This document shows positions 2 to 26,204 of a stretch of DNA of 26,676 nucleotides, one piece after another. The DNA is from a virus (lineage: Duplodnaviria > Caudoviricetes). The position numbers and the translations under genes were made by a program. The notes beneath the pieces were generated by a model. It saw only the letters and a list, made by a program, of their open reading frames with translations. It had not been told where the DNA came from and searched no databases. Every line of letters begins with the position of its first letter. Within the stretch, counting starts at the first letter, position 1. The stretch lies in IMG/VR virus record IMGVR_UViG_3300030330_001737, positions 1 through 26,676 of that record; one strand, 5' to 3'.

Positions 2-745
2 TTGTACGATGACCCCAACAATATTGTTTATCGTGATGTCAGACAGAATCTTTGGACTCTCTTCGGCACAGCCGTTCATAAAATATTAGAGAGTTCGGAG
101 CACCCCGATTACATCACAGAGGAACGCCTGTTCTGCTGTGTGGGGGGAGCTAGGCTATCAGGGCAGATAGACATCCAGCACATACAAAAAGACGGCTCTC
201 GCGTCTTACAGGACTACAAGACACGCAAAGCATATGGCGTGATGAATAATGATAGCGATGAGAAGCAGCTGAATATATATGCATATCTGGCGCAAAGAAA
301 CGGTATCAATGTTAGTGGTTTGCAGATCATTAACTTTATAAAAGATTGGAGTAAACGGGATGCTGAACGTAATCCTGATTACCCACCCCACGACATCCAC
401 ATTCAGAACATAAACCTGTGGCCCTACGAACAGGCAGAAAAGTTTGTGGAAGAAAGAATCCAAGCTCATCAGGATGCGCGGAATGGTAATTTGCCTGACT
501 GCACAGACGAAGAGCGTTGGCTACGCGATGAAAAATTCGCGGTGATGAAAGAGAAACGTGTACGTGCTGTGCGTGTATTCGATTCTCAAATGGAAGCAGA
601 GTCTTTCATATCAGCGCAAAAGGACGCAGACAAACACAGGATAGATCATCGTAAGGGTGTGCCTTTGCGATGCCAAGAGTTCTGTGATGTCAGCGGATAC
701 TGCGATCAATACGCAACGTTTAAACAGGAGAATGAGGATGGCTGA
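2..745 (+). CDS. PD-(D/E)XK (Cas4/AddB-like) phage exonuclease, 5'-truncated by the window edge
   Basis: Motifs FGTAVH..LE, EERL, LSGQIDI, DYKT and QLNIY; C-terminal Cys cluster RCQEFCDVSGYC; lies directly upstream of ERF. Confidence 0.85.
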   Translation: MYDDPNNIVYRDVRQNLWTLFGTAVHKILESSEHPDYITEERLFCCVGGARLSGQIDIQHIQKDGSRVLQDYKTRKAYGVMNNDSDEKQLNIYAYLAQRNGINVSGLQIINFIKDWSKRDAERNPDYPPHDIHIQNINLWPYEQAEKFVEERIQAHQDARNGNLPDCTDEERWLRDEKFAVMKEKRVRAVRVFDSQMEAESFISAQKDADKHRIDHRKGVPLRCQEFCDVSGYCDQYATFKQENEDG

Positions 746-1466
746 AGAGTCACACAAGACACTCATCGAGGCGATGGTGTCAGCGCAAGGTCAGATACAA
801 GGTGCAGCGCGAACTGCCGTAAATGACTTCTACACAAAAAAGAACACACAAGAAGGGCATCCATATGCCACGCTTGAGGATGTCATACAGGCGGTGAAAC
901 AACCACTGCTTGATGAGGGCATTGTGTTCCTACAGAAGTCGCAGCTAGTGGACGGTGGCATCTGTATCGAGACAGTGTTTTATGGACATGGTGAAGAGCT
1001 TTCGGCTGGGCCTATGTTTGTGCCAGCTGACAAGCGCACACCTCAGAGCTTTGGTTCTGCTCTCACCTATGCTCGTAGGTATTCTTTATCTACGGCGTGT
1101 GGGATAGGGGCGAAGGATGATGATGGTAACAGCGCAAACGCTGCGGTGGTTGCTGATCCTAATCACAAAGAGGAGCCGAAGAAAAAGCCAGCCAAGCCAA
1201 AGACAGAAGTGCCAACACCGAAAAAGGTAGAAGCATTGGAAGGTGATGACTTATTTAAAAATATGTCTAACACGTTGAAGGATAGGCTTGGGAACTGCAA
1301 GACAGCAGCTGAATTGAAGGTGGTGCTGGAAGAGACTTGGCAACCTTTAAAAACCGCTTTCACTGGCAAGCAAGATGAGGAACTCACGGTGCTTGCTGAT
1401 CTCATCAGGGAACATATGGTGAGAATAGAAAACATAGGTAAGCAATCAGAAGAAGGAGAATTTTAA
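738..1466 (+). CDS. erf: ERF-family single-strand annealing recombinase
   Basis: YATLEDV and PQSFGSALTYARRYSL..CGI..DDDG match the ERF signature (GSA.TY.RRY..DDD). Start moved to ATG 738, preceded by AGGAG/GAGG and overlapping the upstream stop. Confidence 0.92.
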   Translation: MAEESHKTLIEAMVSAQGQIQGAARTAVNDFYTKKNTQEGHPYATLEDVIQAVKQPLLDEGIVFLQKSQLVDGGICIETVFYGHGEELSAGPMFVPADKRTPQSFGSALTYARRYSLSTACGIGAKDDDGNSANAAVVADPNHKEEPKKKPAKPKTEVPTPKKVEALEGDDLFKNMSNTLKDRLGNCKTAAELKVVLEETWQPLKTAFTGKQDEELTVLADLIREHMVRIENIGKQSEEGEF

Positions 1467-1702
1467 TGGCTGAATGGGAACGAAGAGATATGCAATCCAA
1501 TGTCTTTCCGAACAAGAAGAAGGAACTGGATTGGCACGCCGATTACAGGGGCGACATCTTGGTTGAGGGTAAGGATTACTACATCGACATCACCAAGAAG
1601 ACCGCGAAGACAGGCAACACTTTCTTGTCTGTTAAACTGAAGCCAAAAGAAACATTGGCTAAGGAATCTATCTCTAACTCATTTGATGACATAGAGATAT
1701 GA
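1466..1702 (+). CDS. Small phage protein, probable ssDNA-binding protein
   Basis: FPNKKK..ADYRG.I.V.G..Y.I..K.G..FLSV pattern with an acidic tail (FDDIEI); follows ERF; AGGAG RBS upstream. Confidence 0.6.
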   Translation: MAEWERRDMQSNVFPNKKKELDWHADYRGDILVEGKDYYIDITKKTAKTGNTFLSVKLKPKETLAKESISNSFDDIEI

Positions 1703-1983
1703 GTCGCACCAAATCATATGTGATGGACTTGGAAGAGAAGCTAAACGAAAGAGAGCGTGAGATACGCAGACGTAGGCGCGAGCTTGCGGAGTTTGGTGTG
1801 AACGTCAGGACTATCAACAAAACAGAGTTCGATGAGGATGTGCTTACGAATGTCCGTGAACGTTTAAACGAAGCTGAAAGTTTAATCAGGGCTATGAAAG
1901 TTGCACTTCATAGAGCTATAGATATACGTGCAGAGTTGTTGGATGGCGATAGAAAAAGAGTGGTCAAAAAAGATACGAAGTAG
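1699..1983 (+). CDS. Hypothetical coiled-coil protein
   Basis: ATGA overlap with the upstream gene; charged, helical sequence. Confidence 0.75.
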   Translation: MSRTKSYVMDLEEKLNEREREIRRRRRELAEFGVNVRTINKTEFDEDVLTNVRERLNEAESLIRAMKVALHRAIDIRAELLDGDRKRVVKKDTK

Positions 1984-2224
1984 GAAGCACCTACAGTATA
2001 TCAGGGAACAGGGTTGCCTAATCTGTTATCGCCCTGCACAGGCTCATCACCTAACCTTCGTGGATAGTGATGGCTTGCGTGGTATGCGCAGAACAGGCGA
2101 TCAATTCGCTGTTCCCTTGTGTGATGACCATCACCGACAACTACACGCACATGGTAACGAGGAAAGATGGTGGGCTATGCAGGGTGTAGACCCTATTGGC
2201 TGGCTATCTGAGGAACTTAACTAA
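1943..2224 (+). CDS. DUF968-like Zn-binding HNH-type putative nuclease
   Basis: CLIC..AQAHH..GM..D.FAVPLC..HH..LH motif pattern. Start uncertain (1928 or 1943). Confidence 0.75.
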   Translation: MAIEKEWSKKIRSRKHLQYIREQGCLICYRPAQAHHLTFVDSDGLRGMRRTGDQFAVPLCDDHHRQLHAHGNEERWWAMQGVDPIGWLSEELN

Positions 2225-2242
2225 GCATATTCGGGAGATCAT

Positions 2243-2866
2243 ATGGCTTACAAAAAGAAAGCTTTGATAGAGAAAGAGCTAGAAATGGCTAACGAAAAGG
2301 TGGCGTTCTTAGAAGATCGTTTAAACGGAATGGAGAGGAGACAAAAGGCAGAGAGAGCGCATGGTCAGGAGTTGCAAGAGCAACTGAATCGAGCGGAATT
2401 AAATTTGCTTGAGGAGGAGAAAACATGTGCAAGGCTGCGAAGCGCAATGAACAGGTTGAGTGACCGACCATATAGCGCGACTGATGTTTGGGACTTGGCC
2501 TCTCAGATTTCGTTAAAAGATCTGACCCATCTTATATTTAACTTTAAAGAGTTGGTTAATTATGAACTTGGGCCTCTGGTGCGTATGGAATTAGACACCG
2601 AGCAAGATGCCATAGCGGTTGCTGAAGGCGAGGTATATATCAGTTTGGTTCTGCCCGACACTGTGGGCGAGGAAGATAAGCCCATGAAGCTGCAAGATAT
2701 ATTTGCAGACCATGAGGATGAGGGTGATACAGGGGAGCCTATGGGATACAACCTGACTTTCGATTACTTCAATAGTCAGTTTGTAGCTACAAGCGTTCAT
2801 GTTTGCCACGAGCACAAGAACGTGACGATTGGTTTGGATTCAACTGGAGAATACCTTGGAGAGTAA
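2243..2866 (+). CDS. Hypothetical protein with N-terminal coiled coil and acidic C-terminus
   Basis: 207-aa ORF preceded by a GGGAG RBS. Confidence 0.8.
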   Translation: MAYKKKALIEKELEMANEKVAFLEDRLNGMERRQKAERAHGQELQEQLNRAELNLLEEEKTCARLRSAMNRLSDRPYSATDVWDLASQISLKDLTHLIFNFKELVNYELGPLVRMELDTEQDAIAVAEGEVYISLVLPDTVGEEDKPMKLQDIFADHEDEGDTGEPMGYNLTFDYFNSQFVATSVHVCHEHKNVTIGLDSTGEYLGE

Positions 2867-3299
2867 AATTGCAGAGCACTTCGAGGCAAAGAAGTATGCT
2901 TACAGGCAGACTAAAGATGGTGTCATCTTGAGTTTCGTATTGCATCCAGATGATGTACCCAAGGAGATGGCTCTTGCCAACATAGGCCAACGGTACATGG
3001 TTGCGTGCGCACAGATAGATGACTTCGAGAATCCTATACGTCCGTCAGCTGTAACTGATGGTGAGCGTGCGGTTGCTAGGGCTAATTTAATTTGCAGGGA
3101 TGCGTCATATCAGTCTTGGGTTAGACGCAACAGAGGCGAATGGCCTGATGTAGACTTTGAGAATACGACTGATGAAGAATACGCAGCACAGGTAATTAGA
3201 AGTGTATGCAATGTTGAGTCACGGTCTGAGTTAAAGTACAGCGAAACAGCCAGAACGCTTCTATCTGATCACATGAAAGAGTTTGAGAGATCGCTATGA
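2856..3299 (+). CDS. Hypothetical phage protein
   Basis: Open frame; in-frame TTG at 2856 follows GGAG; ATGA overlap with the next gene. Confidence 0.78.
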   Translation: MESKIAEHFEAKKYAYRQTKDGVILSFVLHPDDVPKEMALANIGQRYMVACAQIDDFENPIRPSAVTDGERAVARANLICRDASYQSWVRRNRGEWPDVDFENTTDEEYAAQVIRSVCNVESRSELKYSETARTLLSDHMKEFERSL

Positions 3300-3559
3300 G
3301 TTGGTATGCTGATAGGCTAAAGCGTCTTAGAACGGATCAGAGGATGTCTCAGCAGCAATTAGCTGATAAGTCTAAGATGACCAAGGCGTATGTTGGACAG
3401 GTTGAAAGGGGTGAGCGTAAGCCTAGCTTCGATGTGGTAGAAAGGATCGCAGCTGCACTGGGCGCGAAGATTTATATCTCGCTTGAGAATCCAGAGCCAC
3501 CAGCTTTGAACCCAAAGAACAAACCGAAAACGTCAATCGCTAGTAGGTTTAACAAATAG
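3296..3559 (+). CDS. XRE/Cro-C1 helix-turn-helix transcriptional regulator
   Basis: LKRLR..MSQQQLA..MTKAYVGQVERGERKPS..IAAALG is a canonical HTH_3 pattern. Confidence 0.93.
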   Translation: MSWYADRLKRLRTDQRMSQQQLADKSKMTKAYVGQVERGERKPSFDVVERIAAALGAKIYISLENPEPPALNPKNKPKTSIASRFNK

Positions 3560-3696
3560 GTCGGGCGTTCCCCTTACACTGAACGCGACACAATCCGCGC
3601 TGCTCGGATCTGACCTATAAGCAGCAAGACCTAGGGCGCACATTACTCCGCGTCCTTAGAAGCATCGTTCCCGTCCGATGTGGTCGAAAAGGCGGG
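3556..3696 (+). ncRNA. Putative structured RNA (three-way junction, hairpin and two possible pseudoknots)
   Basis: Pairings found by eye: 3556-3564/3610-3618, 3565-3570/3581-3586, 3593-3597/3605-3609, loop 3599-3604 with 3620-3625, 3631-3639/3650-3659, 3662-3667/3676-3681, loop 3670-3675 with 3691-3696. G-U pairs favour the + strand. Confidence 0.55.
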
Positions 3697-3720
3697 TTTA
3701 AACGCAACAAGGGTAGGGTT

Positions 3721-4308
3721 ATGGGTATTTTACGTTTCGATAATAGCAATGTGTCTGTTGGTGGCGCGATCTTTTTCAATGATCATGCACAGCAAGTTAG
3801 TCTTGACAAAGGTTTCGCTACCGCTACTGGTGGTGTTTCTGTACAGGCGTTTATTTCTGAAGAACAAAAGCAGCTGAATGAATTGGGCGGTATGCTTGTC
3901 AATCAGGAAGCCAGAGTAGAGAAAGCCGAAAAGCTACTGAAGTCTATACAAAAGGAGAGGGACGCGACTGTAGAATCTATCCGCAAGATCAAAGAGATCG
4001 TACACAAAAAAGACGTCCAGAGAGATGAGGTAAACAAAGCAATTCTCAGGAAGGGTAGGGGTTTCCATTATAGGGATGATGTATCACAGCCGGGTGTTTA
4101 CTTGCTGGCAATGGAAGATAAGATAGTTTATGTGGGTCAATCCAAGAACCCTCATGCGAGGATACCCCAGCATAAGGACAAGGAATTCACCCATGTCCGT
4201 ATACTGCGTTGCCCAGAACGTAGACTGACATATTGGGAGAGCGTTCTGATTAGAAAGATCAATCCTGTATATAACAAAACATTAAAAAAATATCGGAGGC
4301 GTGGTTAA
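3721..4308 (+). CDS. Coiled-coil plus C-terminal GIY-YIG nuclease domain protein
   Basis: PGVYLL..IVYVGQS.N..RI.QH..E..LI..P.YN contains the GIY-YIG motifs with the Arg, Glu and Asn positions retained. Confidence 0.85.
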   Translation: MGILRFDNSNVSVGGAIFFNDHAQQVSLDKGFATATGGVSVQAFISEEQKQLNELGGMLVNQEARVEKAEKLLKSIQKERDATVESIRKIKEIVHKKDVQRDEVNKAILRKGRGFHYRDDVSQPGVYLLAMEDKIVYVGQSKNPHARIPQHKDKEFTHVRILRCPERRLTYWESVLIRKINPVYNKTLKKYRRRG

Positions 4309-4330
4309 CTTTTGCCTTTTGAGGCTATAG

Positions 4331-4444
4331 TAATATGAGAGTTTTTTGGCGCAGGTGAGAGGCAGCATCAGCGTTTAAACAACAGGTCAGATGAAGTACG
4401 GACTCTCGTAATTATTCAGCACCGTGAATCTGATCGTCTGCCTC
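4331..4444. other. Structured intergenic region at the early/late convergence point (possible terminator or ncRNA)
   Basis: GAGGCAG 4359-4365/CTGCCTC 4438-4444; GGTCAGAT 4385-4392/ATCTGATC 4428-4435; TATGAGAGTT 4334-4343/GACTCTCGTA 4401-4410. No clear U-tract. Confidence 0.4.
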
Positions 4445-4613
4445 AGTCTATTTCCATGTTAGAGCAGTCGCCCCATTGAACGGCATCCTCTAATAATGAT
4501 GTAAGTTGATGGGCTTCTATCGGGTTCATAACTATCGTCAGCTCTTTGGTGTCCTCTTTCCACTTGACCTTCATCGCCACATCGCCAACAGGGGTCTCGA
4601 TAAACCCGTCCAT
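4443..4613 (-). CDS. Small acidic hypothetical protein (MDGFIETP...)
   Basis: GGAGG precedes ATG 4613 (alternative start 4631); protein-like sequence. Confidence 0.55.
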   Translation of the reverse strand: MDGFIETPVGDVAMKVKWKEDTKELTIVMNPIEAHQLTSLLEDAVQWGDCSNMEID

Positions 4614-4687
4614 ACGCACCCTCCATGACATCGTTTAAACGCTTAGATACATACACGAAACCATTGCATTGAAGACAATCTATATGA

Positions 4688-5017
4688 TTATTTCTTGCCG
4701 AACTTTTGCTTCTGAGATTTAGGTGGACTCTTTCTGCTACCCCCCTTGCTCCAGAAAAGCTTGTCTGCCCAGAAAGCAGCAGATGTTTTGCCCTTTTTTA
4801 TATTTTTGGCATGGCGTGCTTTGAAGCTTTTACGTGCCTCATCGCTGTAGTTGTGTCCCATCTTCTGATCACCGAATCGGATGATCTTCATCTTGCTACC
4901 GTCCCTGACAGCAACGACACCTTTCTTGGTGGGGTGGTTAGGCGTTCTCTTTGGCTTGTTTAAACCCTTCAAGCCTACCTTTTTCAGCCTGTTTTTTTCA
5001 GCATCTGTCAAACTCAT
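4688..5017 (-). CDS. Highly basic small viral protein (DUF6321-like, from recall)
   Basis: KIIRFGD..M..ARKSFKARH..SAAFWA..W motif; Lys-rich; ATGA overlap with the preceding gene. Confidence 0.8.
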   Translation of the reverse strand: MSLTDAEKNRLKKVGLKGLNKPKRTPNHPTKKGVVAVRDGSKMKIIRFGDQKMGHNYSDEARKSFKARHAKNIKKGKTSAAFWADKLFWSKGGSRKSPPKSQKQKFGKK

Positions 5018-5256
5018 TTGCGATACCTCGCTGTTTTCTTGGCAATCTTCTTGGGTTGTGCGCTGAACTGCTTGCCCTTCTTGGTATCCTTTCTTTTCTT
5101 GCGGGATGTAGCTGCGTATTCCTTAGCAGACAAGGACTTGATGGCTTTAGTAGGTAGGTATCTTTCCCCTGTCTTGGCACTAGGCTTGCCCGACTTGGTT
5201 CTCCATTTCTGTTTCGTCCACTTCTTGAGGGACTTCTGTGACTTTTTGAGAGCCAT
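5014..5256 (-). CDS. Highly basic small protein resembling the C-terminal half of DUF5872
   Basis: QKSLKKWTKQKWRTKSGK..ERYLP motif; TAATG overlap with the preceding gene. Confidence 0.8.
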   Translation of the reverse strand: MALKKSQKSLKKWTKQKWRTKSGKPSAKTGERYLPTKAIKSLSAKEYAATSRKKRKDTKKGKQFSAQPKKIAKKTARYRK

Positions 5257-5378
5257 TATTTTTTCTTCTTCTTCTTACCTTTGTTTAGTTTATCGAAGTC
5301 GGCTTTGGTAATCTTATCTCTGGGCTTCGCTACTCTCGCTAGCTTTTTCTGCTTGGGGCTGTACTTCTTGAACGGCAT
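5256..5378 (-). CDS. 40-aa Lys-rich peptide absent from the ORF track (MPFKKYSPKQKKLARVAKPRDKITKADFDKLNKGKKKKKK)
   Basis: Translated by hand; GGAGG RBS, then TTTAAAC, then ATG; its TAA overlaps the next ATG; it fills the gap in the operon. Confidence 0.8.
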   Translation of the reverse strand: MPFKKYSPKQKKLARVAKPRDKITKADFDKLNKGKKKKKK

Positions 5379-5389
5379 GTTTAAACCTC

Positions 5390-5677
5390 CTAACGTTTCT
5401 TTGCGTTTGCTCTGCGTATTGCCTCTTTACCTTTCTTCGCTATCTCTGCTTGCTTGTTTTTGCCAGCTACCTTGGCCCTCTGTTCGAGCACAGTGAGGAT
5501 CTGGATCTTTCTAGCGAATGGCTTCTTAATGTTCTTAACTTTCCTTACAGTGTCTCTAGCGTCCTTCTCAGTGGCGAATTTTATACTGACGGTATCCTTG
5601 GGGTTCTCATCTGTATACAGCCGTCTGCCCGATCCCTTGGGCTTCTTGCCTGTCCCTTTCTTGGGATCTTTGCTCAC
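5390..5677 (-). CDS. Highly basic small viral protein
   Basis: RLYTDENPKDTV.IKF.T..DA..TV..KIQI..VLEQRA; ATGA overlap with the preceding gene. Confidence 0.82.
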   Translation of the reverse strand: MSKDPKKGTGKKPKGSGRRLYTDENPKDTVSIKFATEKDARDTVRKVKNIKKPFARKIQILTVLEQRAKVAGKNKQAEIAKKGKEAIRRANAKKR

Positions 5678-5889
5678 GACCTATAGCCCCCACCTTTCTC
5701 CTTGTATCTCTTAGCCAGCATCTGAGCTTTCCTTGCGCTCCATTGTCCCGGCTTTCCACCCTTGCCACTCGCTTTGATAGACTCGAACAATCTCTTTCTC
5801 ATAGCTGGTTTTGTATAGTTGCCAGCTTCGTTAACGCGAGACTTGCTCTTCTTTTTTACCTTACCGCCCTTCTTAAATCGCCTAAACAT
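5674..5889 (-). CDS. Highly basic small protein resembling the N-terminal half of DUF5872
   Basis: YTKP..R..IK..KGGKPGQWSARKAQMLAK.YK..GGGY motif; ATG 5889 preceded by AGGTGA. Confidence 0.82.
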   Translation of the reverse strand: MFRRFKKGGKVKKKSKSRVNEAGNYTKPAMRKRLFESIKASGKGGKPGQWSARKAQMLAKRYKEKGGGYRS

Positions 5890-5918
5890 TACTATCACCT
5901 ACCACTAATGTTGTGTAC

Positions 5919-6362
5919 TCAAACAGATTCCCAAGGTTTACCTTCAAACAATAATGCCTCTGCTTGCCTACGCCTTATAAGACCATCCAACACCTGACCG
6001 CCTGCACGATTCCATCTTTTAATTTGCTCTGGCACACCGCCATAATTGCGTTCATTTAAAACTTTAAGCATAGTAGATTCTCTCAGATTCCCCTCACCTA
6101 AATTAAACGTCCAAGCAACTAAAGCATCAAATTGATTTTGTTCTAGCTCAACTTTCACTAGTCGGTCAACTGCCTCCTCGAATACACCTAAATCATCTTT
6201 AAGCATATCTTCTGCCTCTTCCTGAGTGCAGGTGTCTCCATCCTTTACGCCTAGCGTATGACCGTAACCTATAGTCAATACTCCAGCTGAACACTGATAA
6301 CTGCTTAACTCACAGCCTTCAAACTTTTTTATTAATGCAATACCCTCTTCACTCGTTTTCAT
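5919..6362 (-). CDS. Endolysin, GH24 (T4 lysozyme-like) muramidase
   Basis: GIALIKKFEG..Y.C.AG..TIGYGH, QNQFDALV..FNLG.G and W..AGG..L.GL..RR..E; ATG 6362 follows AGGAG. Confidence 0.95.
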   Translation of the reverse strand: MKTSEEGIALIKKFEGCELSSYQCSAGVLTIGYGHTLGVKDGDTCTQEEAEDMLKDDLGVFEEAVDRLVKVELEQNQFDALVAWTFNLGEGNLRESTMLKVLNERNYGGVPEQIKRWNRAGGQVLDGLIRRRQAEALLFEGKPWESV

Positions 6363-6720
6363 CTTCGCTCTCCTTGGTATCTGCGCTGCGGTAATACTCA
6401 ACGATGGATAATACCTGTCGAATATAACGCTTAACTTCTGCCATATTATACGAAAGATTTTCATAACCTTTTGTACTTAATCCATAAAACGCATTCGTCG
6501 GTGCGTTACCCTGCTCAAGATCTGCTAAGTATTCACCCATCGTTTGAGGTGTCAATACAACCCACTCAACAGGCATAGTAGTAACTTTGTTGGGTAGCGG
6601 AGGGTGATACACAGGAGCTTGTTCTACTACCGTAACAACCTCTACAGGCTTTACTTCTGGCAATCGTTCTTGCCATGAACATCCACTAAGTAGTAGGAGT
6701 GGTAATAGTTTCCAACTCAT
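6349..6720 (-). CDS. Outer-membrane spanin lipoprotein (o-spanin, Rz1-like)
   Basis: Signal peptide II MSWKLLPLLLLSG-C (lipobox) followed by a Pro-rich segment; overlaps the 3' end of the i-spanin gene. Confidence 0.78.
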   Translation of the reverse strand: MSWKLLPLLLLSGCSWQERLPEVKPVEVVTVVEQAPVYHPPLPNKVTTMPVEWVVLTPQTMGEYLADLEQGNAPTNAFYGLSTKGYENLSYNMAEVKRYIRQVLSIVEYYRSADTKESEDENE

Positions 6721-7084
6721 TAAGCACCTGCTTAGTTCCACGATTAATTATATTTTCTATTAGCTTTGGTTTCCGCAATGAAAGCACATCCATATTGTGC
6801 TTCGAGAACTTTTTTCTGATCTCTTCAACTTCCTCCAACGCCTTCTGATTTTCTACGGTAAGTGCGGATATACGCTCTAATACAATTTTGTTTTTTTCTT
6901 TTTGATCTAATAGCTGTTGATTCTGTTCAGCTATATTTTTTTCTAACAACTCCTGATTATCTATAGCTAGTTCTAGCTTAGTTTGCAGCTCACGTTTCTG
7001 TGCCTCTGCCTTGTCATAATAGGACTTAAAGCCACCTACCAAAACCAACATCAAAATACCGCTACCTATGACTAACTGCCACAT
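6686..7084 (-). CDS. Inner-membrane spanin (i-spanin, Rz-like)
   Basis: N-terminal TM helix plus a long coiled coil; adjacent to a lipoprotein gene and the endolysin. Confidence 0.75.
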   Translation of the reverse strand: MWQLVIGSGILMLVLVGGFKSYYDKAEAQKRELQTKLELAIDNQELLEKNIAEQNQQLLDQKEKNKIVLERISALTVENQKALEEVEEIRKKFSKHNMDVLSLRKPKLIENIINRGTKQVLNELETITTPTT

Positions 7085-18176: not shown

Positions 18177-18187
18177 GTTTAAACGTC

Positions 18188-19660
18188 CTAAGCTGCTCTA
18201 TTTAAAGCTGCTGCACCTAATAAGAAGTTAAGTAGTTGGCCTGTTGAACTAGCAGCAGGTTGCTGTTGAGCCACTGTCCTATCCATCGGGCTAGCTTGCG
18301 CACCCCTGAGAATTCCAGAGTAAAACTGTAACTGCTCTTTAGGAAAGTCTCTTTGTCGCAAGAAGTCTTGGTATGCCGTATCTAGTATACGTTGCTCATC
18401 GGCTCTTAGATCTGCACCTAACGCCTGTAGTGCTCCTAGCCTCTGCAAGTCCAATGCTTGTTCTTGTCGATCAACATCTATGCCAAATCTAGCAAGCGTA
18501 TCTAACCTAGCTTTCTCTTGCGCTAACGCTCTTTGATTTGCAATCAATGCCTGTAGACCTTGCGCACCTGCTTGTTGTTTTGCACGCTCTCCTACATCAA
18601 ATGCTCTTATGCCTTGCTCTCCACCCTTCAGTGCTAACTCTTCAGAAGCTAAGTCAGCACGTAGTCCTAACTGATCTGCTGTTTGTGCTGATCTATCTGC
18701 TGCAAGCAATGCTTGTAATGTTTGTTGCCCCTGCGCTCTTTGTGCAGCATCTCTTAATTGTTGTGCTTGTAGATCTTGTGTGCCAGCAGCCTGTGCAAAT
18801 CTGCCTGTCGCAACATCAGCTTGAAGACCTAGGCCAGCAGCTGCTCTCCTAGATGCGTCAGTCAGCTGTTGTGTTTTTAATTGTCTGTCAATATCAGCTA
18901 GTGCAGTAGCGGTTGCCTTGTCATATCCTTTTAATAATAAGTCGGCTTCTTGTGCAGCTTGCCTATCTAAAAACCCTCGTTCTGCCTCTAGGTTTGCTAG
19001 TGTGCCTCTTGCCCCGAAAGCACTGGCTCCACCCGCTCTAGTCGCCTGTAAATTTCTTTGTGCTTGTTGCTGATTGAAAGCTCTAGCTGCTCTTTCTTGC
19101 GCTCGATCCAAAACCTGCTCTTGGAAAGGGTTTTGAAACTGCGCAATCCGACTTGCCAGATCGGGTTGAGTAAACTCTGTGCCAGTATATCCAGTGCCAA
19201 TATTTGCGCCTTGGAATCCAGCTTGGATATCTCCTGCACGATACCCTGAGTCAAATGCTGCTGGTGCTGTATAGGTAGAAGCAACTCTACCGGGTGTTAC
19301 AGCAGTTGGTGTTTGTCCGGGTGCAGTATAGCTGGTAGTTGCATCTGTGATGCTTGCCCCTCTAGGAAGACCCGTTGTGGGATCTATTAATTGATCAGTG
19401 GCTCTTGCCCTACCAACATTAACACCGGGCAAAGATCGTGAGGCAAGTCCCGTAATCCCTTGAAAAGCAGCCTGTTGTTCTGGAGTATAAGCAGCGAGTC
19501 TTTGTCCTTCAAACGGCACATAATCTTGCTGCAATATAGCGTCAGCTGACTGCAAGCTTTTCTGGAGATACGGATAAAACTCCTCTGGTATATTTGTATT
19601 TGTGACAGTTGTTTGTACATTCTGCACACCACCTGCACCACCACCGCTACTACCGCCCAT
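18188..19660 (-). CDS. Internal virion (DNA pilot/ejection) protein, putative
   Basis: MGG.GGG start, P..PY, Y.PF.GQR.A..P.Q, NPFQ.QV, GAFG.RG-like and YQDF..FP..QL motifs; Ala/Gln-rich; hydrophobic C-terminus. Confidence 0.75.
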   Translation of the reverse strand: MGGSSGGGAGGVQNVQTTVTNTNIPEEFYPYLQKSLQSADAILQQDYVPFEGQRLAAYTPEQQAAFQGITGLASRSLPGVNVGRARATDQLIDPTTGLPRGASITDATTSYTAPGQTPTAVTPGRVASTYTAPAAFDSGYRAGDIQAGFQGANIGTGYTGTEFTQPDLASRIAQFQNPFQEQVLDRAQERAARAFNQQQAQRNLQATRAGGASAFGARGTLANLEAERGFLDRQAAQEADLLLKGYDKATATALADIDRQLKTQQLTDASRRAAAGLGLQADVATGRFAQAAGTQDLQAQQLRDAAQRAQGQQTLQALLAADRSAQTADQLGLRADLASEELALKGGEQGIRAFDVGERAKQQAGAQGLQALIANQRALAQEKARLDTLARFGIDVDRQEQALDLQRLGALQALGADLRADEQRILDTAYQDFLRQRDFPKEQLQFYSGILRGAQASPMDRTVAQQQPAASSTGQLLNFLLGAAALNRAA

Positions 19661-20123
19661 TCACGACCTCCAATACTGGCTGATCTACATCCTGTGTTTC
19701 ATAGTTTACAGGCTTCGTCATTAATACATATTCCTTCACAAAACCATTATCAGACCACTTCTTTTCTAATGCAGGTGCAGTAGATGTTTCTAGTCCGTCT
19801 AACTGTAATGTTTTTGCAAATACCTCACAGACCTCTAATGCCTGTTCTCCCCACTCCTTTAATCTAACACCACTCAAGGTATTCAAATCTAAATATTTTT
19901 TTCTTGGATACACATTCACACCACAAATAAAAAACCCTATTGGATTTTCTTCTTCCCACACAATCCATACAAAATAAGGAAGCTCTATCATTTGATGAAG
20001 AATGTCAGCAGTATTATATCTGCCGTGACTTCTACGCTCTAGATTTTCGGCGTGATGAGATATCTTAGGCCAGATGTCTAAAATCTTATTCTTTTCTATA
20101 AGTTTTATATCGAACTTGCTCAT
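19650..20123 (-). CDS. Virion morphogenesis protein, possibly GNAT acetyltransferase-like
   Basis: 157-aa alpha/beta pattern (YPRKKYL..LSG..W..FAK..GLE..W..GF) directly before the ejection genes, the position of P22 gp14 / T7 gp13. Confidence 0.55.
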   Translation of the reverse strand: MSKFDIKLIEKNKILDIWPKISHHAENLERRSHGRYNTADILHQMIELPYFVWIVWEEENPIGFFICGVNVYPRKKYLDLNTLSGVRLKEWGEQALEVCEVFAKTLQLDGLETSTAPALEKKWSDNGFVKEYVLMTKPVNYETQDVDQPVLEVVNGR

Positions 20124-20662
20124 CCTACATATGGCTCTGGTCTTCGCATATCCATAACAATTTGTTCTGGTGTTTGATTCATTTCTTCTGGTTGAACAGT
20201 AGTGGCTGTTTTTTCTTTACGAATGTTATCTATCATCTGATCTAGCAGCTCACCACCCCTTGTCGTGCTCCCATCTCCTATGTGCGACACAACATCTGCC
20301 GGGATAACATATTCATCTCTTGACAGTAAAACAGGCTCCATGCCCTCTATATTGGCTGGAACGACATCATCCATGCCCCCACCAGCACCGGGAACCAGTC
20401 CCTCAAAAAACGATGTTTCTATTTCTAGTTGACCGCCATGCGCATACTTTGGCAACAAACCGCCGAATGGATTTTTCGGCTCTTTTGTAAAGCGTTCTTT
20501 ATACAGCTCCCTAATCTGATCCATCGTGAGATTTTCTAAATCAAAAGCCTTCGTCATGCTTTTTAGCTGATCTTCTGTTTGATCAGCCATTTTTTTAGCT
20601 TGACGTAAACTTTGCTCCTGCATACCTCGCAGCTGAGATATTGATGTTATTGGTCTATCCAT
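20120..20662 (-). CDS. Putative virion protein with a G.G.G.DD.VPA..LS..EYVIPADVV domain
   Basis: The motif resembles the GG.V.GPG.G.SDSIPA.LS.GE.V module recurrent in phage virion and tape-measure C-termini (recall). Confidence 0.7.
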   Translation of the reverse strand: MDRPITSISQLRGMQEQSLRQAKKMADQTEDQLKSMTKAFDLENLTMDQIRELYKERFTKEPKNPFGGLLPKYAHGGQLEIETSFFEGLVPGAGGGMDDVVPANIEGMEPVLLSRDEYVIPADVVSHIGDGSTTRGGELLDQMIDNIRKEKTATTVQPEEMNQTPEQIVMDMRRPEPYVG

Positions 20663-22696
20663 TTATGAAAAACGTCCGATAGGTATCATTGCCACGTTAG
20701 TAGGTCTTGTTAAGGCTGTACCAGCTGTTTGTGCTAATCCCGCTGATGGTCTGGAAACATTACCTAATTGCGTAGTTAAAGCATCTATCTGTGTTTGTAG
20801 ACTTGTCGGGTCAAATGTAGTTGCTGCTGGAGCAGCTGATAGCGCATCTATCTGTGATTGCAATCCTGTGGGATCAAACGCCAGTGCATCTAAATCTGCT
20901 TGAGTTACAAAACTAGATGTGTCTATGCCCGGATTGAATCCTGTCAATGCAGTATCGAGATCCGATGCAGTAACAAACTGACTGGTATCTATTTGTGGAT
21001 TGAAGTCTGATAACGCTGTATTGAGATCAGACGTAGTTAAAAAGTCAGAAGTGTTTAAACCTGCCATTGGATCAAACCCTTGTAACGTGGTAGTTAAATC
21101 ATCCTGTGTAACAAACCCGGTTGGATCAAAGCCAGCCAAAGGATCAAAACCTTGCAGTGTTGTGTCTATATCGTCTTGTGTTACGAAACTTGATGTATCA
21201 ATAGGATTGCTGGCTAAATAATCTGCTATATAGGTATCGATATCACTTGCAGCTATGAAGTCATCGGGATTGAACCCCATTCCTGTCGGGTCTTGATATC
21301 CCGGTATTATCATGCCGGGTTCACCCGGAGTTTGTCCCGGCGCAGTAGGATCTCCAGTAACATTACCTCCCTCATAATCAGAGCCGGGAGCACCGCCCGG
21401 ATCTTGATTAGGATCAGTAATAGCATCTGTAGGATCAGATGTATCTGTTGTTGATCCTGTAGTAGTTCCTGTAGTAGTTCCTGTAGTAGTGCCTCCATCA
21501 TCCATAATTGCACTACCATAGATATTTCTAGTCAGTGTAGGATCACCTAGCAATCTTGCGCTGTAATCAATGACTGGAGCATCCGCAAATCCTCTAGTGC
21601 CTAAATTAAATTGTGTATCCTGTGCTCTTGGAACAAACTGCTGTATGGTTTCTGTACCAATAACTTCTGGTGCTTGTGAGAAAAATGCCGGGCCAGCCAC
21701 AGGAACTGTAGATGGGTCTGTATTAAAGTCAAAGCGCGGGCCAAAATCAAAAGGACTAAAATTAACAGAGCCACCTTCTTGAAATTGTTGTGTATAAGAA
21801 AATGGATTAGCAAAATAATCCATTTCTGATGATCTACCACCTCTACCAGATACCGGGAACTGAACACCTCTATCGTCTAACGTTACGGGAACATAAAAGT
21901 CTTCATCATCATCTGCCATACCCAAAGGCATATTCATTGCCAAATACTGATCGGTCATTCCCTGACCAGTAAGTGCAGCTGTGCCTATAGATCCTAGTTC
22001 TCTAGGAGTTATAGTCGCAAATTCACTACCTATTTTTTGGAATATATTTTGCGTAGCAGCATCTGTTATAGGTTTATTAACAGCAGCCTTGCCAGCCTCT
22101 TGCAAAGTTTGAGCAGCAGCTGGACTAAATCCCAATGGAGCTTGTGTTGCAATATTTGATAAAACATTCTGCCCACCGACACCAGCAGCCTGTTTAAACG
22201 CTTCACTCCCTCCCGTTTGTAGAAGTTCAGAACCCCCCTGTTGAACCAATTGTTCCGTAGTTTGTTTAGTGCCTTCCTTTAAAAGCTCTTGACCCCCTTG
22301 TAGCCCCTCTCCCAAAAACTTACCACCAATACCACCCAAGACTCCGCTTATAAGACCAGCCTTCAATCCCTCTTCCAAACTTCCTGTTTCGATTGCTGTG
22401 CCAACACCAGAGCCTACGGCAGCTAATCCAGCAGCTCCACCTAGAGCACCCAAGGCAGTTATTGGCGCAGTTGCCCCAAGTAATCCACCACCTAATGCCA
22501 ATAGCAAAGGTAGGAATGCTTCTGGTTGACCAGTATCAGGGTTGATAGTAAGTGCATTGTTAGGTGTCATAGAACGAAGAACATCCACTTCTCGCGGGTT
22601 CATGTGAACCAGCATTGAGTCTCCGTATCTACCCTTAGAAGCCAACATATCAGCTTGTTGTTTAAACGGCTGATCTTTCTGAAATGCTCTGTTCAT
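20663..22696 (-). CDS. Putative internal virion protein with acidic internal repeats
   Basis: N-terminal GRYGD..LVH.NP.E..L..TINPDTG.PE motif, Gly/Ala hydrophobic segments, and C-terminal D(T/P)S.FVT..DL repeats. Confidence 0.75.
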   Translation of the reverse strand: MNRAFQKDQPFKQQADMLASKGRYGDSMLVHMNPREVDVLRSMTPNNALTINPDTGQPEAFLPLLLALGGGLLGATAPITALGALGGAAGLAAVGSGVGTAIETGSLEEGLKAGLISGVLGGIGGKFLGEGLQGGQELLKEGTKQTTEQLVQQGGSELLQTGGSEAFKQAAGVGGQNVLSNIATQAPLGFSPAAAQTLQEAGKAAVNKPITDAATQNIFQKIGSEFATITPRELGSIGTAALTGQGMTDQYLAMNMPLGMADDDEDFYVPVTLDDRGVQFPVSGRGGRSSEMDYFANPFSYTQQFQEGGSVNFSPFDFGPRFDFNTDPSTVPVAGPAFFSQAPEVIGTETIQQFVPRAQDTQFNLGTRGFADAPVIDYSARLLGDPTLTRNIYGSAIMDDGGTTTGTTTGTTTGSTTDTSDPTDAITDPNQDPGGAPGSDYEGGNVTGDPTAPGQTPGEPGMIIPGYQDPTGMGFNPDDFIAASDIDTYIADYLASNPIDTSSFVTQDDIDTTLQGFDPLAGFDPTGFVTQDDLTTTLQGFDPMAGLNTSDFLTTSDLNTALSDFNPQIDTSQFVTASDLDTALTGFNPGIDTSSFVTQADLDALAFDPTGLQSQIDALSAAPAATTFDPTSLQTQIDALTTQLGNVSRPSAGLAQTAGTALTRPTNVAMIPIGRFS
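21455..21490. repeat. Perfect in-frame tandem repeat, 12 bp x 3 (TCCTGTAGTAGT)
   Basis: Read directly; encodes TTTG three times in the 677-aa protein. Confidence 0.9.
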
Positions 22697-22721
22697 GGCA
22701 CACTCTATAAGCGTTTAAACG

Positions 22722-23057
22722 CTATGTTATCTCAAGTAATGAAACAAATATATCAAAGTAATTAGCTGTTCCAGCAGTCATTCTCAATTTGTCTTTTGAC
22801 TCTAAAACAATTACTTCACCCTCTGTAAGATACCCTTTCCTAGTCTCTGCTGCTATCGAAGCAGTCTTTTCAAATTCTGTTGTTCCTGATGCGCTGTTAT
22901 CAAAAATATGAACAATCAAAGACGCTGGATTAGATGCGTTAGTGTTAAATGCACTAACCGTTTTCAATATTGCCGTGGCCCCTTGTGGGCATTCATATAC
23001 GTCTGTAATAGATGTGGAATCTAATGTCTTAATTGCATTTTGATAAATGGTAGGCAT
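22722..23057 (-). CDS. Small beta-rich structural (tail-associated) protein, putative
   Basis: Y.CP..TAILK..N..IVLE..DKL pattern; start at ATG 23057 via a TAATG overlap. Confidence 0.7.
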   Translation of the reverse strand: MPTIYQNAIKTLDSTSITDVYECPQGATAILKTVSAFNTNASNPASLIVHIFDNSASGTTEFEKTASIAAETRKGYLTEGEVIVLESKDKLRMTAGTANYFDIFVSLLEIT

Positions 23058-23236
23058 TACGACATAAACCAAGATATTGCAGATGATTCATTCTCTACAT
23101 CTTGTTTTGATGGAATCAACTCCAAAACTATCCTCAGTTGGTTTATTAACCTAAGCATATAGTCTTCTTGATAGTCGGGTGTTGGTAGCTCTAAAGGGAG
23201 CCTATGTTCCGCTCCACTTGCCGTTTTAGTTGTCAT
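23057..23236 (-). CDS. 59-aa protein absent from the ORF track (MTTKTASGAEHRLPLELPTPDYQEDYMLRLINQLRIVLELIPSKQDVENESSAISWFMS)
   Basis: Translated by hand; ATGA overlap with the upstream stop, TAATG overlap with the downstream start, GGAGGAG RBS. Confidence 0.8.
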   Translation of the reverse strand: MTTKTASGAEHRLPLELPTPDYQEDYMLRLINQLRIVLELIPSKQDVENESSAISWFMS

Positions 23237-25080
23237 CTCCTCCCATCCTGTCTGACATCAAGACGAACATCTCCTAATCTCCATCCATTCTCTACATCTG
23301 TGCTTTCTACTCTAACCCTAACCTGTCTTGCCCTAGCTCTAACATTAGATAAAGCAAACTCGCTAGTGGTAGTAACTGATGTTGTGGACTCCGATGTTAG
23401 TGTACCACCAGTATTATCTCTAGTTTTTATAGTGTAATTTAATGTGGGATTAGTAGATGATCCAACAAAATCACAATCTGGCAATAGTCTTCTGACAAAT
23501 GCAAAATGATCTCCATCATCAATATCAAAGTCAGCAGTTTCTATAAATGCCGTTAAAGCTGATCCATCATCATCAAACCCCACTTCATGCTCAAATATTA
23601 AACCAGAGTCATTTGTTGTTTTTACCGCTATAGGATTATCTGAAGATGCTCCTGCATCATCCCAAAAATCTCTTGCTAGATCTGCAATAGTCCAATGATT
23701 TTCAACATAGTTATAAACAACCATAGCATTTAACACAGTTGAATCACCTGTAGGATAAAACCAACCAACTTCATTAAAGCCTGTATTTGCAAATGCAACT
23801 ATTTGATTTGCCTGTATCTGATTAAGATTGTCAAACACATATGCTCTAACAGAACATGGCAAAACTTTGGCAGATCCCGAATAAACATAAAAATTTCTAC
23901 GATCCATAAAAAAGATTACATTATTAGCACTAATAGCTGCATTCTGAGATATAAGACTAACGCCATCTGTAATTAAATTTGCTTTAAATATAAATGGCGC
24001 TCCAACAAACTGAACGCTATAAAGAGCAGCGTCTGTCCAGATTGCAACTTCCTGCCTACCTCGTAACGCACCTATTATCTCTGATCCTACAGAAAGTCGT
24101 AAATCACCAGCTGTATTAGTAGTTTTGGGTGTCCAATCTAATAAATTTTCCTGTGTACACCATCGTATCTGCATAAGATCTATATTAGTTTCACCAAAAG
24201 GATTACAGCCAATAGCTAATACATGGCGATCTTGTGTTGATACAACTATCTGCAAACACTCAGTTGGTGGATTATCATTGCCAGATATATCTGTAAGCTC
24301 TAAAGCTCTATTGGTTTCGTTGGTTGCATCCCACAAATAAATAGATCCGAGTCTTGGGTTTAAGACTAAATCTTCTCCGAAGTTATCAAGGCTCCATAAT
24401 CTCAGTGTATTTGTTAAAGTATCACCACTTGATGTTCCCCAAGTTCCTGAGTTCCAAGGCCCAGACCCCCAACCTCCACCCGGTACAGCTACATCTAACC
24501 CAATATTTATTTGATATGCAGCTACAGTGCTGCCACCACCATTACCTGTGTCACTACTATTAGCTGTTACTGTGGCACCTGATGTATCTTTAGCTGTAAA
24601 TGTAAAAGCATTAGCAGAGCTAATCTCTGTAATCTCATACTCTTGATTTAATACAGCTGCTGTTATATTGCCACCTAAACTTGCTGCGCTACTAAAAGTA
24701 ACAAAATCACCAAGCACTGCCCCATGACCTGTTTCATTACAGGTTATAGTTGATGATCCATTAGTAGCTGAAAAAGTTGGATCTCCTGCGCTAGTTGTTA
24801 GACGTATTGGAGTTACATCATTAAATACACTTCCAATCGCTACATAAGTTTTTTTTGTGGTTCCTAGTCCAATATATCTAACACCTGATAAAGACACCCA
24901 CTGTTTTATTTTTCTACAAACACCAACAAATGTAGTAGCATACTTTTTTGTCCAACCCCCCATTTTTTCTGGTTTACCAGATCTAAATCTAACAAATGAG
25001 CCATCATAAAATCTCCCCTCGTTACTATAGGCTGTGCCTTCTTTGTAAATTCCGGGTTGAAAATTAAATCGCTTTAACAT
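23233..25080 (-). CDS. Tail/head-stabilisation protein (P22 gp10 / tail nozzle-like beta-propeller) with an inserted FCCH-like beta domain
   Basis: Trp/beta-rich sequence with IRWC.QE..W.P..N.AG..L..GS.I, FNEV.WFYP and RARARQ..WRLG..R.D..DGRR; insert TITC..HG..GDFVTFS..LNQEYEIT. Confidence 0.78.
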   Translation of the reverse strand: MLKRFNFQPGIYKEGTAYSNEGRFYDGSFVRFRSGKPEKMGGWTKKYATTFVGVCRKIKQWVSLSGVRYIGLGTTKKTYVAIGSVFNDVTPIRLTTSAGDPTFSATNGSSTITCNETGHGAVLGDFVTFSSAASLGGNITAAVLNQEYEITEISSANAFTFTAKDTSGATVTANSSDTGNGGGSTVAAYQINIGLDVAVPGGGWGSGPWNSGTWGTSSGDTLTNTLRLWSLDNFGEDLVLNPRLGSIYLWDATNETNRALELTDISGNDNPPTECLQIVVSTQDRHVLAIGCNPFGETNIDLMQIRWCTQENLLDWTPKTTNTAGDLRLSVGSEIIGALRGRQEVAIWTDAALYSVQFVGAPFIFKANLITDGVSLISQNAAISANNVIFFMDRRNFYVYSGSAKVLPCSVRAYVFDNLNQIQANQIVAFANTGFNEVGWFYPTGDSTVLNAMVVYNYVENHWTIADLARDFWDDAGASSDNPIAVKTTNDSGLIFEHEVGFDDDGSALTAFIETADFDIDDGDHFAFVRRLLPDCDFVGSSTNPTLNYTIKTRDNTGGTLTSESTTSVTTTSEFALSNVRARARQVRVRVESTDVENGWRLGDVRLDVRQDGRR

Positions 25081-25401
25081 TTATTTTCTGCTCATGTATG
25101 CAGTTGCACCAAAATAAAGACCTACTACAGAAGCCTGACTCAAGAATAACATATCACTTAATGATGCTAGAGTGTTTAAACGATCTTCGGGTACAAATGG
25201 AAGTAAAGGTAATATTGCAAATACACACATAGATATCATTGCAACCCACGCCATTTTCTTTTGTGAGTCAGCTTTTTCTTCTTGCAACTCTAGTTGTAAC
25301 ATTTCTTGATGCTTAGATAATTCATCATCAGTGACTGTGCCATCACCGTCAGTATCATATTCTGCGTATCTCGATTTAGGCTCCAACTTTTTTGCGTTCA
25401 T
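25081..25401 (-). CDS. Two-TM membrane protein with an N-terminal EF-hand loop; holin candidate
   Basis: DTDGDGTVTDDE is a 12-residue EF-hand loop; hydrophobic segments MAWVAMISMCVFAILPLLPFV and MLFLSQASVVGLYFGATAYM. Start uncertain (25401 or 25425). Confidence 0.65.
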   Translation of the reverse strand: MNAKKLEPKSRYAEYDTDGDGTVTDDELSKHQEMLQLELQEEKADSQKKMAWVAMISMCVFAILPLLPFVPEDRLNTLASLSDMLFLSQASVVGLYFGATAYMSRK

Positions 25402-25723
25402 ACCTATCTTCTTTAAGCTCTTCAACTTGTTGTTGTAACTTAGAAACAGTTTCTTCTAACAATTCTATCTTGAGATCTTGTCTGCTGTCAGCAGGTAAAG
25501 AACCCAGCTCACCCCTCGGCCATTTGATACGAAACTCACTGTTAGCCTCGACATCAACCTGTTGCAAATCCATATCATGCTCAAGAAAAGTAACTCTTTC
25601 TGTTAGTCCAAAATATGCAAAAGATGCAACGGCAGTAGCTGCTAACAATGATATCAAGTTAGCTAATGGTATTCGTATAGCTGTACCTTCATTAAGATCT
25701 AACGAGTTATTCTTTGTTGCCAT
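25376..25723 (-). CDS. Single-TM coiled-coil protein
   Basis: TM segment LANLISLLAATAVASFAYFGL followed by heptad repeats. Confidence 0.75.
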   Translation of the reverse strand: MATKNNSLDLNEGTAIRIPLANLISLLAATAVASFAYFGLTERVTFLEHDMDLQQVDVEANSEFRIKWPRGELGSLPADSRQDLKIELLEETVSKLQQQVEELKEDRYERKKVGA

Positions 25724-25948
25724 CTATACAGTAACCAAAATGTTTTGACCTGTGGCTTTTGGCGTAGTGTAACTAAAAGCTCCATTCTTGTAGGTATATA
25801 CTTTAGAGTCGTAATAGGTGGTTATCACCTCACTCTTCCTATTAGTCTCTCGCACATGCAATCTTTCTACTTCTATTTTTTGTATCTGATGTTTTGCATT
25901 TGGTGGCTGTGCTTGCACACTATTTGGAAAAGGCGGTATGTCAGTCAT
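25724..25948 (-). CDS. Hypothetical protein
   Basis: 74-aa ORF abutting both neighbours on the operon strand. Confidence 0.65.
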   Translation of the reverse strand: MTDIPPFPNSVQAQPPNAKHQIQKIEVERLHVRETNRKSEVITTYYDSKVYTYKNGAFSYTTPKATGQNILVTV

Positions 25949-26204
25949 CGTCTTTATTTGTTCTCTTTGGATCTCTAAATATATATTTGCCTTTACCTGC
26001 CTCTGCTTGTGGTATTAGCCTTACCTCACAAAAACCATCAAACTTATTTGTTTTAGATCTTGTCCAATTATGTTGATGAACACTTTGGTGAACTAAAGCA
26101 TCTCTATATTCTAAACAGGAAGTAAGTTCTTGGAAATAAAGCTCTACCCCTGTTGGGACACCGCCGGGAGTCAATAACACCAAAACAAAGATCATAAGAG
26201 TCAT
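25941..26204 (-). CDS. Hypothetical protein with a hydrophobic N-terminus and two Cys
   Basis: 87-aa ORF with an ATGA overlap at 26201-26204. Confidence 0.7.
   Translation of the reverse strand: MTLMIFVLVLLTPGGVPTGVELYFQELTSCLEYRDALVHQSVHQHNWTRSKTNKFDGFCEVRLIPQAEAGKGKYIFRDPKRTNKDDD

Follow-up and report, generated by a model that had tools for sequence, protein, structure and literature searches.

Why would a tailed phage carry one eight-base palindrome, GTTTAAAC, again and again along its DNA, both inside and between genes? The question is raised by IMG/VR record IMGVR_UViG_3300030330_001737, a linear virus record of 26,676 bases that is a fragment of a tailed-phage genome and is referred to here, at its full length, as the window. 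An earlier note on this sequence had pointed out the palindrome and read it as a selected DNA-level signal. Our analysis supports that reading: the excess of the word is real and under selection, it co-occurs across phages with a gene for a SprT-like protein (the partner gene), and the zinc ribbon of that protein, not its protease domain, tracks the word. Its most likely role is to serve as a binding site for a protein of the phage.

Excess of the word in the window

Exact copies of GTTTAAAC number 21, spanning positions 718 to 25181 at 0.79 sites/kb in DNA of 42.6% guanine plus cytosine. Dinucleotide shuffles of the window gave a mean of 0.56 copies and a maximum of 3, with 21 reached in 0 of 100, and Markov models based on 2-mers, 3-mers and 4-mers predicted 0.51, 0.65 and 0.99 copies, respectively. 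The word was the top-ranked 8-mer under all three models, at 21-41-fold over-representation. Within the 31 curated open reading frames (ORFs) of the window that served for phase and shuffle counts, 15 copies are coding, compared with 1.09 +/- 0.99 after synonymous codon shuffling (maximum 6, 2000 shuffles), and the word is used in 15 of the 19 places where the amino acids allow it. The count and strong excess reported in the earlier note were confirmed by all three approaches and, because the excess persists under Markov models and synonymous shuffling, codon or low-order k-mer bias was rejected.

Nine copies lie in the xLN phase, six in the xFKx phase and six outside ORFs; the last six fall within 3.2% of the window and are enriched there (P = 4e-5). 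This distribution over two codon phases and intergenic DNA agrees with what had been described and rejects an explanation from protein sequence. The tripeptide RLN was found at six window sites against 1.9 expected, which suggests that selection for the binding word is powerful enough to mold the encoded proteins. The context of the word is an 8-bp palindrome with pyrimidine/purine flanks and little signal further out. The flank bias (a 5′ pyrimidine in 20/21 copies and a 3′ purine in 16/21) and the 14-bp palindrome AGCGTTTAAACGCT at 22710-22723 were both recovered as noted before.

One-mismatch variants of GTTTAAAC occurred 4 times in the window against ~15 expected, and near-miss words pooled gave 105 against 142. 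This partial depletion would favor a functionless origin, in which a methylation- or repair-driven mutational ratchet makes the word, as was once proposed for the cyanobacterial word HIP1; a C5 methyltransferase gene in one relative (G003; L083:10839-12002) points the same way. We regard such a ratchet as very unlikely. A scan of the 31 ORFs of the window and of 28 ORFs in the relative G001 matched no methyltransferase, a result that also speaks against the methylation mark suggested in the earlier note, and a ratchet fits poorly with the operator-like placement of the word and its tight link, across phages sharing few other genes, to a single ribbon domain (both described below). Palindromes of six bases are, as a class, rarer than expected in the window (291 vs. 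440), and several are absent, including CTGCAG (0 vs. 13.8 expected) and CTTAAG (0 vs. 8.7). This depletion is the usual restriction-avoidance pattern.

Conservation and turnover in relatives

Over 25.1 kb the window can be aligned, at 89% identity, with its closest near-complete relative, G001 (54 kb, 93% complete). Only the site at 22192..22199, in a diverged stretch, is not common to both. The aligned sites are identical in 20 of 20 cases, compared with conservation of 50% of all 8-mers, and 14 of 15 coding sites are kept by protein alignment. This identity in a separately assembled record rejects a PmeI, adapter or assembly artefact. Five relatives, G001 to G005, contain 48, 47, 40, 38 and 1 copies of GTTTAAAC, respectively. 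Among six relatives with 47-62% amino-acid identity, coding sites were kept in 0/3, 0/1, 0/4, 3/9, 1/8 and 1/7 cases, and these relatives hold their own GTTTAAAC sites at other places. Of 72 loci found via a structural protein, the 28 closest (at least 55% identity) contained 133 sites vs. 7.9 expected, and the other 44 contained 8 vs. 17 expected.

Site density was ~1.5/kb in the early arm vs. 0.45-0.8/kb in late genes. Permitted places in early genes were all filled (12/12 and 13/13), and those in late genes of G001 were filled in 7/10 and 11/14 cases. Spacing was more even than random at P < 0.05 in 13 of 32 tests, some on regions bounded by eye and with the window included (P = 0.039), and the spacing statistic lay under the null mean in 28 of 32. 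Because sites move while the excess persists and spacing is even, the number and coverage of sites seem to matter more than their position. The precedence of number over position would suit a titration timer, in which decoy sites soak up an autorepressor as genome copies rise, promoters come on at a set copy number and roadblocking is incidental. Operators at a divergent early/late control region and the lack of strand polarity in phage Stuff (both below) would also fit. However, a sink needs no even spacing, and a cluster of sites would be cheaper than shaping protein sequence; we think such a timer improbable.

A scan of GTDB returned only two relatives, both contigs of metagenome-assembled genomes, and gave no host assignment. 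A search of named phages gave matches at 24-36% only.

A SprT-like partner gene co-occurs with the word

The partner gene is present in G001-G004, and G005 gave no match. In G001 it is a 201-amino-acid ORF (18140-18745) for a zinc protease of SprT-like type whose C-terminus forms a 'QxTR' zinc ribbon. It opens the early gene block, runs divergently from the small terminase gene and lies ~9.4 kb beyond the left end of the window in G001 coordinates; the window itself is without it. AAA ATPase and DUF7192 genes follow downstream in the clade of the window. The earlier note had put forward the helix-turn-helix (HTH), basic and GIY-YIG proteins of the window as readers; the gene that tracks the word is outside the window, although those three were not directly checked for co-occurrence. 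The DUF968 protein of the window was also considered as a ribbon homolog and gave no match to the ribbon profile (probability 0.3%).

The G001 protein matches PHROG 6361 (E = 3.5e-32), and H92, E93, H96 and H105, which make up the HExxH motif and a downstream third ligand, are invariant in 113 homologs. Scores against Pfam PF10263 for G001-G004 were 13.6-24 bits, under the curated cut-off of 25.6. The full-length model (predicted local distance difference test score, pLDDT, 85.9) had selecase (Z 7.1), abylysin (6.9), SPRTN (6.8) and Wss1 (5.7) as best fold matches, and Z values under 8 are only moderate; the alignment to SPRTN 6mdx covered 98 residues at a root-mean-square deviation of 4.1. 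The C-terminal part matched only generic rubredoxin-like ribbons in this search (Z about 4), and the ribbon modeled alone had a pLDDT of 80.1. No solved structure matched the family by sequence (best E = 0.15).

Co-occurrence was found from both directions. Starting from the gene, 36 of 41 loci around it, many of them close kin, were enriched for GTTTAAAC or GTGTAAAC (P < 0.001). Starting from the word, a scan of part of IMG/VR for two nearby copies yielded 128 loci, of which 79 with long flanks were scored and 48 short ones dropped; the scored set divided into 29 enriched, 42 non-enriched and 8 intermediate loci. The partner gene was present in 22/29 enriched, 0/42 non-enriched and 2/8 intermediate loci, or by distinct contig in 19/26 vs. 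0/42 (Fisher P = 2e-11, uncorrected for kinship). Whole-record search showed that two complete enriched records lacking the gene locally carry it elsewhere; the other five enriched records without it are 17-31% fragments. The same search of 21 of the 42 non-enriched records returned one weak partial match only. The word-rich, gene-bearing sequences form about a dozen groups with few other genes in common.

The partner gene was found in 164 named phage records, of which 11 were picked for host spread and counted. Venkman contained 34 copies of GTTTAAAC; Stuff, MaGuCo and Percival contained 42, 15 and 14 copies of GTGTAAAC, respectively; Mano, ECO1230-10, Persinger and MQ-4 had 4-6 GTTTAAAC each; and Dismas, Epa5 and CN1 had 0-1 sites each. 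Four more records of Cluster AZ had 17, 17, 27 and 17 GTGTAAAC, with 0 in reversed controls. The word or a one-base variant is present in phages that infect Arthrobacter, Microbacterium, Streptomyces, OM43, Escherichia, Serratia and Achromobacter. This spread over seven host groups tells against mimicry, in which the word would copy a motif of the host chromosome recognized by one of the host's own proteins; the earlier note raised this possibility, and only analogy speaks for it. In addition, none of 151 sampled Pseudomonadota genomes exceeded about 0.05 sites/kb, the host of the phage itself being not identified, and we give mimicry hardly any credence.

The two strands carried GTGTAAAC in ratios of 21:21 in Stuff, 6:8 in Percival and 4:11, 5:12, 7:20 and 2:15 in AZ phages, in which an in-frame stop may explain the skew. 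Chi and KOPS are polar translocation signals; a signal of this type was rejected, as the word is palindromic and Stuff shows no strand bias. Several GTGTAAAC copies are central to longer inverted repeats (L127:8023-13991). Literature searches, whose coverage left out most subscription papers and the supplements of the AZ preprint, found no paper pairing the word with the gene.

The zinc ribbon tracks the word

The zinc ribbon, not the protease domain, tracks the word. In Dismas, Epa5, CN1 and two further loci (L128, L130) the protease is kept, the 'QxTRxxKxxC' ribbon is replaced by another tail and only 0-1 sites are found; in a quick homolog tree, this loss of the ribbon falls in two separate branches. 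Conversely, 15-40 sites are present at the loci that encode stand-alone 55-amino-acid ribbons (L222, L225, L235) or copies without HExxH (L182, L213, L224, L241). A search with the ribbon profile gave 2,489 clusters at 50% identity; the best 150 comprised 96 with a zincin domain and HExxH, 11 with a zincin domain lacking HExxH and 43 that were partial or short. Matches in the Atlas to the stand-alone ribbon were only unnamed clusters of small zinc ribbons.

One stand-alone ribbon gene is the first of an early operon that also encodes a putative amidoligase and a glutamine amidotransferase (L222:5797-8203). Epa5 and L130, which have the other C-terminus and lack the word, are rich in CCCTGGGC (57 vs. 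9.7 and 19 vs. 1.6), and CN1, from the same branch, is not. The alternative tail and CCCTGGGC are possibly a second reader-word pair. Loci L118 and L119 encode a close homolog with an altered ribbon segment and contain a relaxed word set consisting of GTTTAAAC, ATTTAAAC, GGTTAAAC and GTGTAAAC.

Operator-like placement upstream of the partner gene

The word is often placed just ahead of the partner gene, close to its predicted promoter. In 24 of 37 loci a site occurred no more than 130 nt before the gene, compared with 5.7 expected, and 11 of 27 nearest upstream sites had a high sigma-70 score with an ad hoc scorer vs. 31 of 704 other sites. At many loci the site fills the spacer after a TTGACA-like box; in AZ, EH and Jilinvirus-like phages it is placed after a -10-like box. 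In the clade of the window, five genomes share the arrangement TTGACA-nn-GTTTAAAC, which lies within a conserved divergent control region (G001 about 17670-17790, L092:1250-1370; also L095, L115, L120 and L121) with an A-rich tract, a TTGACA box, a spacer that holds the word and a weak -10 candidate. A second GTTTAAAC lies 60-73 nt upstream, near the start of the small terminase gene, in 4 of the 5 genomes. A site in a gene's own promoter is the layout of negative autoregulation.

A 15-bp near-palindrome, TTACCCATAGGGTAA, is found between the two control-region copies. Two relatives contain a Mu-gpT-DE RNA (Rfam RF03012; L115:799-850 and L121:1062-1114), and upstream of position 9908 in L119 hammerhead-like core words were seen by eye, with no Rfam match at the gathering score.

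Cluster AZ phages and immunity

The preprint on Cluster AZ, a group of temperate Arthrobacter phages, reports that these phages form lysogens, that no repressor was identified and that the SprT-like gene is among the candidates; it also names a 'SprT-like protease' in Cluster AZ, EH and EB actinophages and mentions unshown repeat sequences near the gene (bioRxiv 10.1101/2025.05.26.655371). Lysogens of Powerpuff are immune to related phages (PMC8758107). Phage Liebe, with a one-base insertion in its SprT-like gene that we also see in the sequence, forms clear plaques, and Maureen forms turbid ones; integrase-less AZ4 phages are turbid too (bioRxiv 10.1101/2025.05.26.655371). The AZ protein belongs to the same family as that of G001 (37-43% identity), and five AZ genomes contain 15-27 GTGTAAAC, with one copy just upstream of the gene where inspected. 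The AZ passages of PMC8758107 and of the preprint do not name the word. These observations suggest that the partner protein may supply the immunity repressor so far missing from certain soil phages in culture. The AZ question, that of immune lysogens with no recognizable repressor (PMC8758107; bioRxiv 10.1101/2025.05.26.655371), becomes directly testable, and a very common, uncharacterized phage protein gains a concrete candidate site.

Proposed mechanism

We consider it very probable that the ribbon protein binds the word, and we lean, by a little, toward its being an autoregulated repressor with a stoperator-like array of sites. The protein would be made first, from a host-polymerase promoter adjoining the small terminase gene, and its ribbon would bind GTKTAAAC. 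Binding in the spacer between the -35 and -10 boxes, or at +1, would turn off the early operon together with the promoter of the gene itself, and another copy of the word, at a distance of 60-73 nt, would cover the start of the late operon. The other sites, one every 0.5-1.5 kb, would act as roadblocks that keep the genome silent in lysogens, in a dormant state without integration or in superinfected cells, with the protease domain as an accessory switch or effector. Integrase-less marine phages may accordingly have a regulated quiet state; as context only, incomplete lysis is described for many marine isolates without lysogeny genes (bioRxiv 10.1101/2020.04.27.064238, in the passages concerned).

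Several observations count against a repressor or against the ribbon as reader. For 13 of 37 partner genes the preceding 130 nt contain no copy of the word, a strict promoter scan of G001 17500-18900 found 0 promoters, and the window sites are mostly intragenic, with 0 in a TTGACA spacer and 1 of 21 high-scoring with the ad hoc promoter scorer. Two ribbon-bearing loci, L122 and L125, have 0 sites inside 10-11 kb, the record of L122 having four elsewhere. Three other changes also separate Liebe from Maureen (passages of bioRxiv 10.1101/2025.05.26.655371), and the truncated frame of Liebe still holds the ribbon. Neither an integrase nor a resolvase turned up in G001-G004, and with 38-48 sites these integrase-less phages exceed the integrase-bearing ones (4-27), a difference not expected from a pure lysogeny repressor. 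Finally, HExxH is kept in 96 of the 107 top members with a protease domain, and therefore proteolysis matters.

The last two points favor the main rival to the repressor model, to which we assign a smaller but appreciable chance. Here the same protein, bound at the same sites and limiting its own synthesis when these are full, would coat the incoming genome, so that an active zinc protease is tethered every kilobase; there it would cut host proteins loading onto phage DNA or moving along it, such as restriction translocases, exonucleases, silencers or trapped protein-DNA crosslinks. The position of the gene as first early gene beside the terminase, the even spacing, the turnover of positions with persisting excess, the filling of late genes too and the fold matches to selecase, abylysin, SPRTN and Wss1 are all consistent with such a coat, and the passages on phage SprT-like peptidases in PMC7824862 suggest that these cut host proteins. 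However, protease-dead and stand-alone ribbon versions accompany the densest arrays, and the Liebe phenotype is one of clear plaques, not poor growth (bioRxiv 10.1101/2025.05.26.655371, as above). Beyond the repressor model, we tentatively suggest a widespread family of sequence-targeted proteases, in which the ribbon parks an SPRTN-like protease at an 8-bp word written every kilobase. Such a docked protease might, with similar reserve, cut proteins moving along DNA, either RNA polymerase, giving silencing and immunity, or host defense machines.

Sites and genes of the window

Positions of the 21 sites and of the two gene blocks are listed in Table 1. Four small, very lysine-rich ORFs lie at 4688-5898, and three of them match PHROGs 7595, 14910 and 17747. 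A scan of the window against Rfam found no family at the gathering score. In relatives, G003 has CsgF-, CsgG- and FecR-like genes (L083:5145-8126), and the large terminase of G001 is split into two overlapping ORFs (L077:15510-17062) that correspond to a single 526-amino-acid ORF in G003.

Table 1. Copies of the word and gene blocks in the window (aa, amino acids; SSB, single-stranded-DNA-binding protein).
Feature	Position	Strand	Location or content
GTTTAAAC	718..725		exonuclease gene (TFKQ), 12 nt ahead of Erf-like gene start
GTTTAAAC	1862..1869		inside ORF 1699-1983 (RLNE)
GTTTAAAC	2319..2326		inside ORF 2243-2866 (RLNG)
GTTTAAAC	3696..3703		intergenic, 17 nt ahead of GIY-YIG ORF
GTTTAAAC	4373..4380		intergenic, convergence point of early (+) and late (-) blocks
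GTTTAAAC	4633..4640		1 nt ahead of ATG of ORF 4443-4631 (-)
GTTTAAAC	4958..4965		inside small basic ORF 4688-5017 (GLNK)
GTTTAAAC	5379..5386		intergenic, small basic ORFs on either side
GTTTAAAC	7228..7235		3027-aa ORF (RLNN)
GTTTAAAC	8724..8731		3027-aa ORF (QFKR)
GTTTAAAC	11374..11381		3027-aa ORF (RLNR)
GTTTAAAC	12798..12805		3027-aa ORF (LFKQ)
GTTTAAAC	14194..14201		3027-aa ORF (RLNE)
GTTTAAAC	16223..16230		669-aa ORF (LFKQ)
GTTTAAAC	17466..17473		669-aa ORF (SLNV)
GTTTAAAC	18177..18184		immediately ahead of 669-aa ORF ATG; AGGA precedes site
GTTTAAAC	21053..21060		677-aa ORF (GLNT)
GTTTAAAC	22192..22199		677-aa ORF (AFKQ); diverged stretch, sole site not shared with G001
GTTTAAAC	22660..22667		677-aa ORF (PFKQ)
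14-bp palindrome around GTTTAAAC (22713-22720)	22710..22723		16 nt ahead of 677-aa ORF ATG
GTTTAAAC	25174..25181		inside ORF 25081-25425 (RLNT)
Early arm end	2..4308	+	PD-(D/E)XK exonuclease, Erf-like annealing protein, SSB-like, DUF968, XRE HTH, GIY-YIG
Late arm	4443..26380	-	small basic proteins, endolysin, spanins, large unassigned ORFs, virion structural protein (phrog_3287)

Comparison with known systems

The closest known arrangement is that of the stoperators of Cluster A mycobacteriophages, described in passages of PMC9283540 for the L5/TipsytheTRex repressor. These sites are asymmetric, 13 bp long and confined to short gaps between genes, where their orientation follows transcription, and their reader is a monomer with an HTH and a Stoperator domain whose binding blocks both initiation and elongation (PMC9283540). 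As in Cluster A, where more than 20 repressor-type sites are spread across a 40-60 kb genome, there are 21 sites in the window and 38-48 in near-complete relatives; some overlap promoters, here predicted ones with the site in the TTGACA spacer or at +1 of the partner gene, which occur in relatives only and not in the window; and there is a candidate link to immunity. Unlike those described for Cluster A, the sites here are 8-10 bp dyads (the palindrome has no orientation, and GTGTAAAC is strand-balanced in Stuff but skewed in AZ phages), 15 of 21 lie inside genes rather than mainly in short intergenic spaces, the candidate reader is a zincin plus zinc-ribbon protein, and the array is also found in phages without integrase.

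HIP1 (GCGATCGC) of cyanobacteria is a palindromic octamer that is 15-300-fold over-represented and conserved within and between genes (PMC5861425). The word of the window is likewise an over-represented (21-41-fold) and conserved (20/20) palindromic octamer with non-random spacing, but it differs from GCGATCGC, occurs in phage DNA rather than cyanobacterial chromosomes and is tied to a candidate binding protein, HIP1 being tied to orphan methyltransferases; for the phages, the one methyltransferase seen is the C5 enzyme of G003, with none matched in the window or in 28 ORFs of the 93% complete G001. The likeness is one of statistics only.

The partner protein resembles SprT, SPRTN and Wss1 in the order of its parts, an HExxH zincin domain and behind it a small domain that binds zinc, and differs in that some members of the phage family lack the protease. 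SPRTN and Wss1 are not known to recognize a particular sequence. The passages on phage SprT-like peptidases in PMC7824862 name no site, and those of the AZ preprint name no binding site for the phage protein (bioRxiv 10.1101/2025.05.26.655371). Our results point to a sequence-reading zinc ribbon, of which we found no description, that possibly steers a protease. For the word and the ribbon gene, the analysis covered the operator placement, the turnover of sites, their spacing and the link to AZ immunity.

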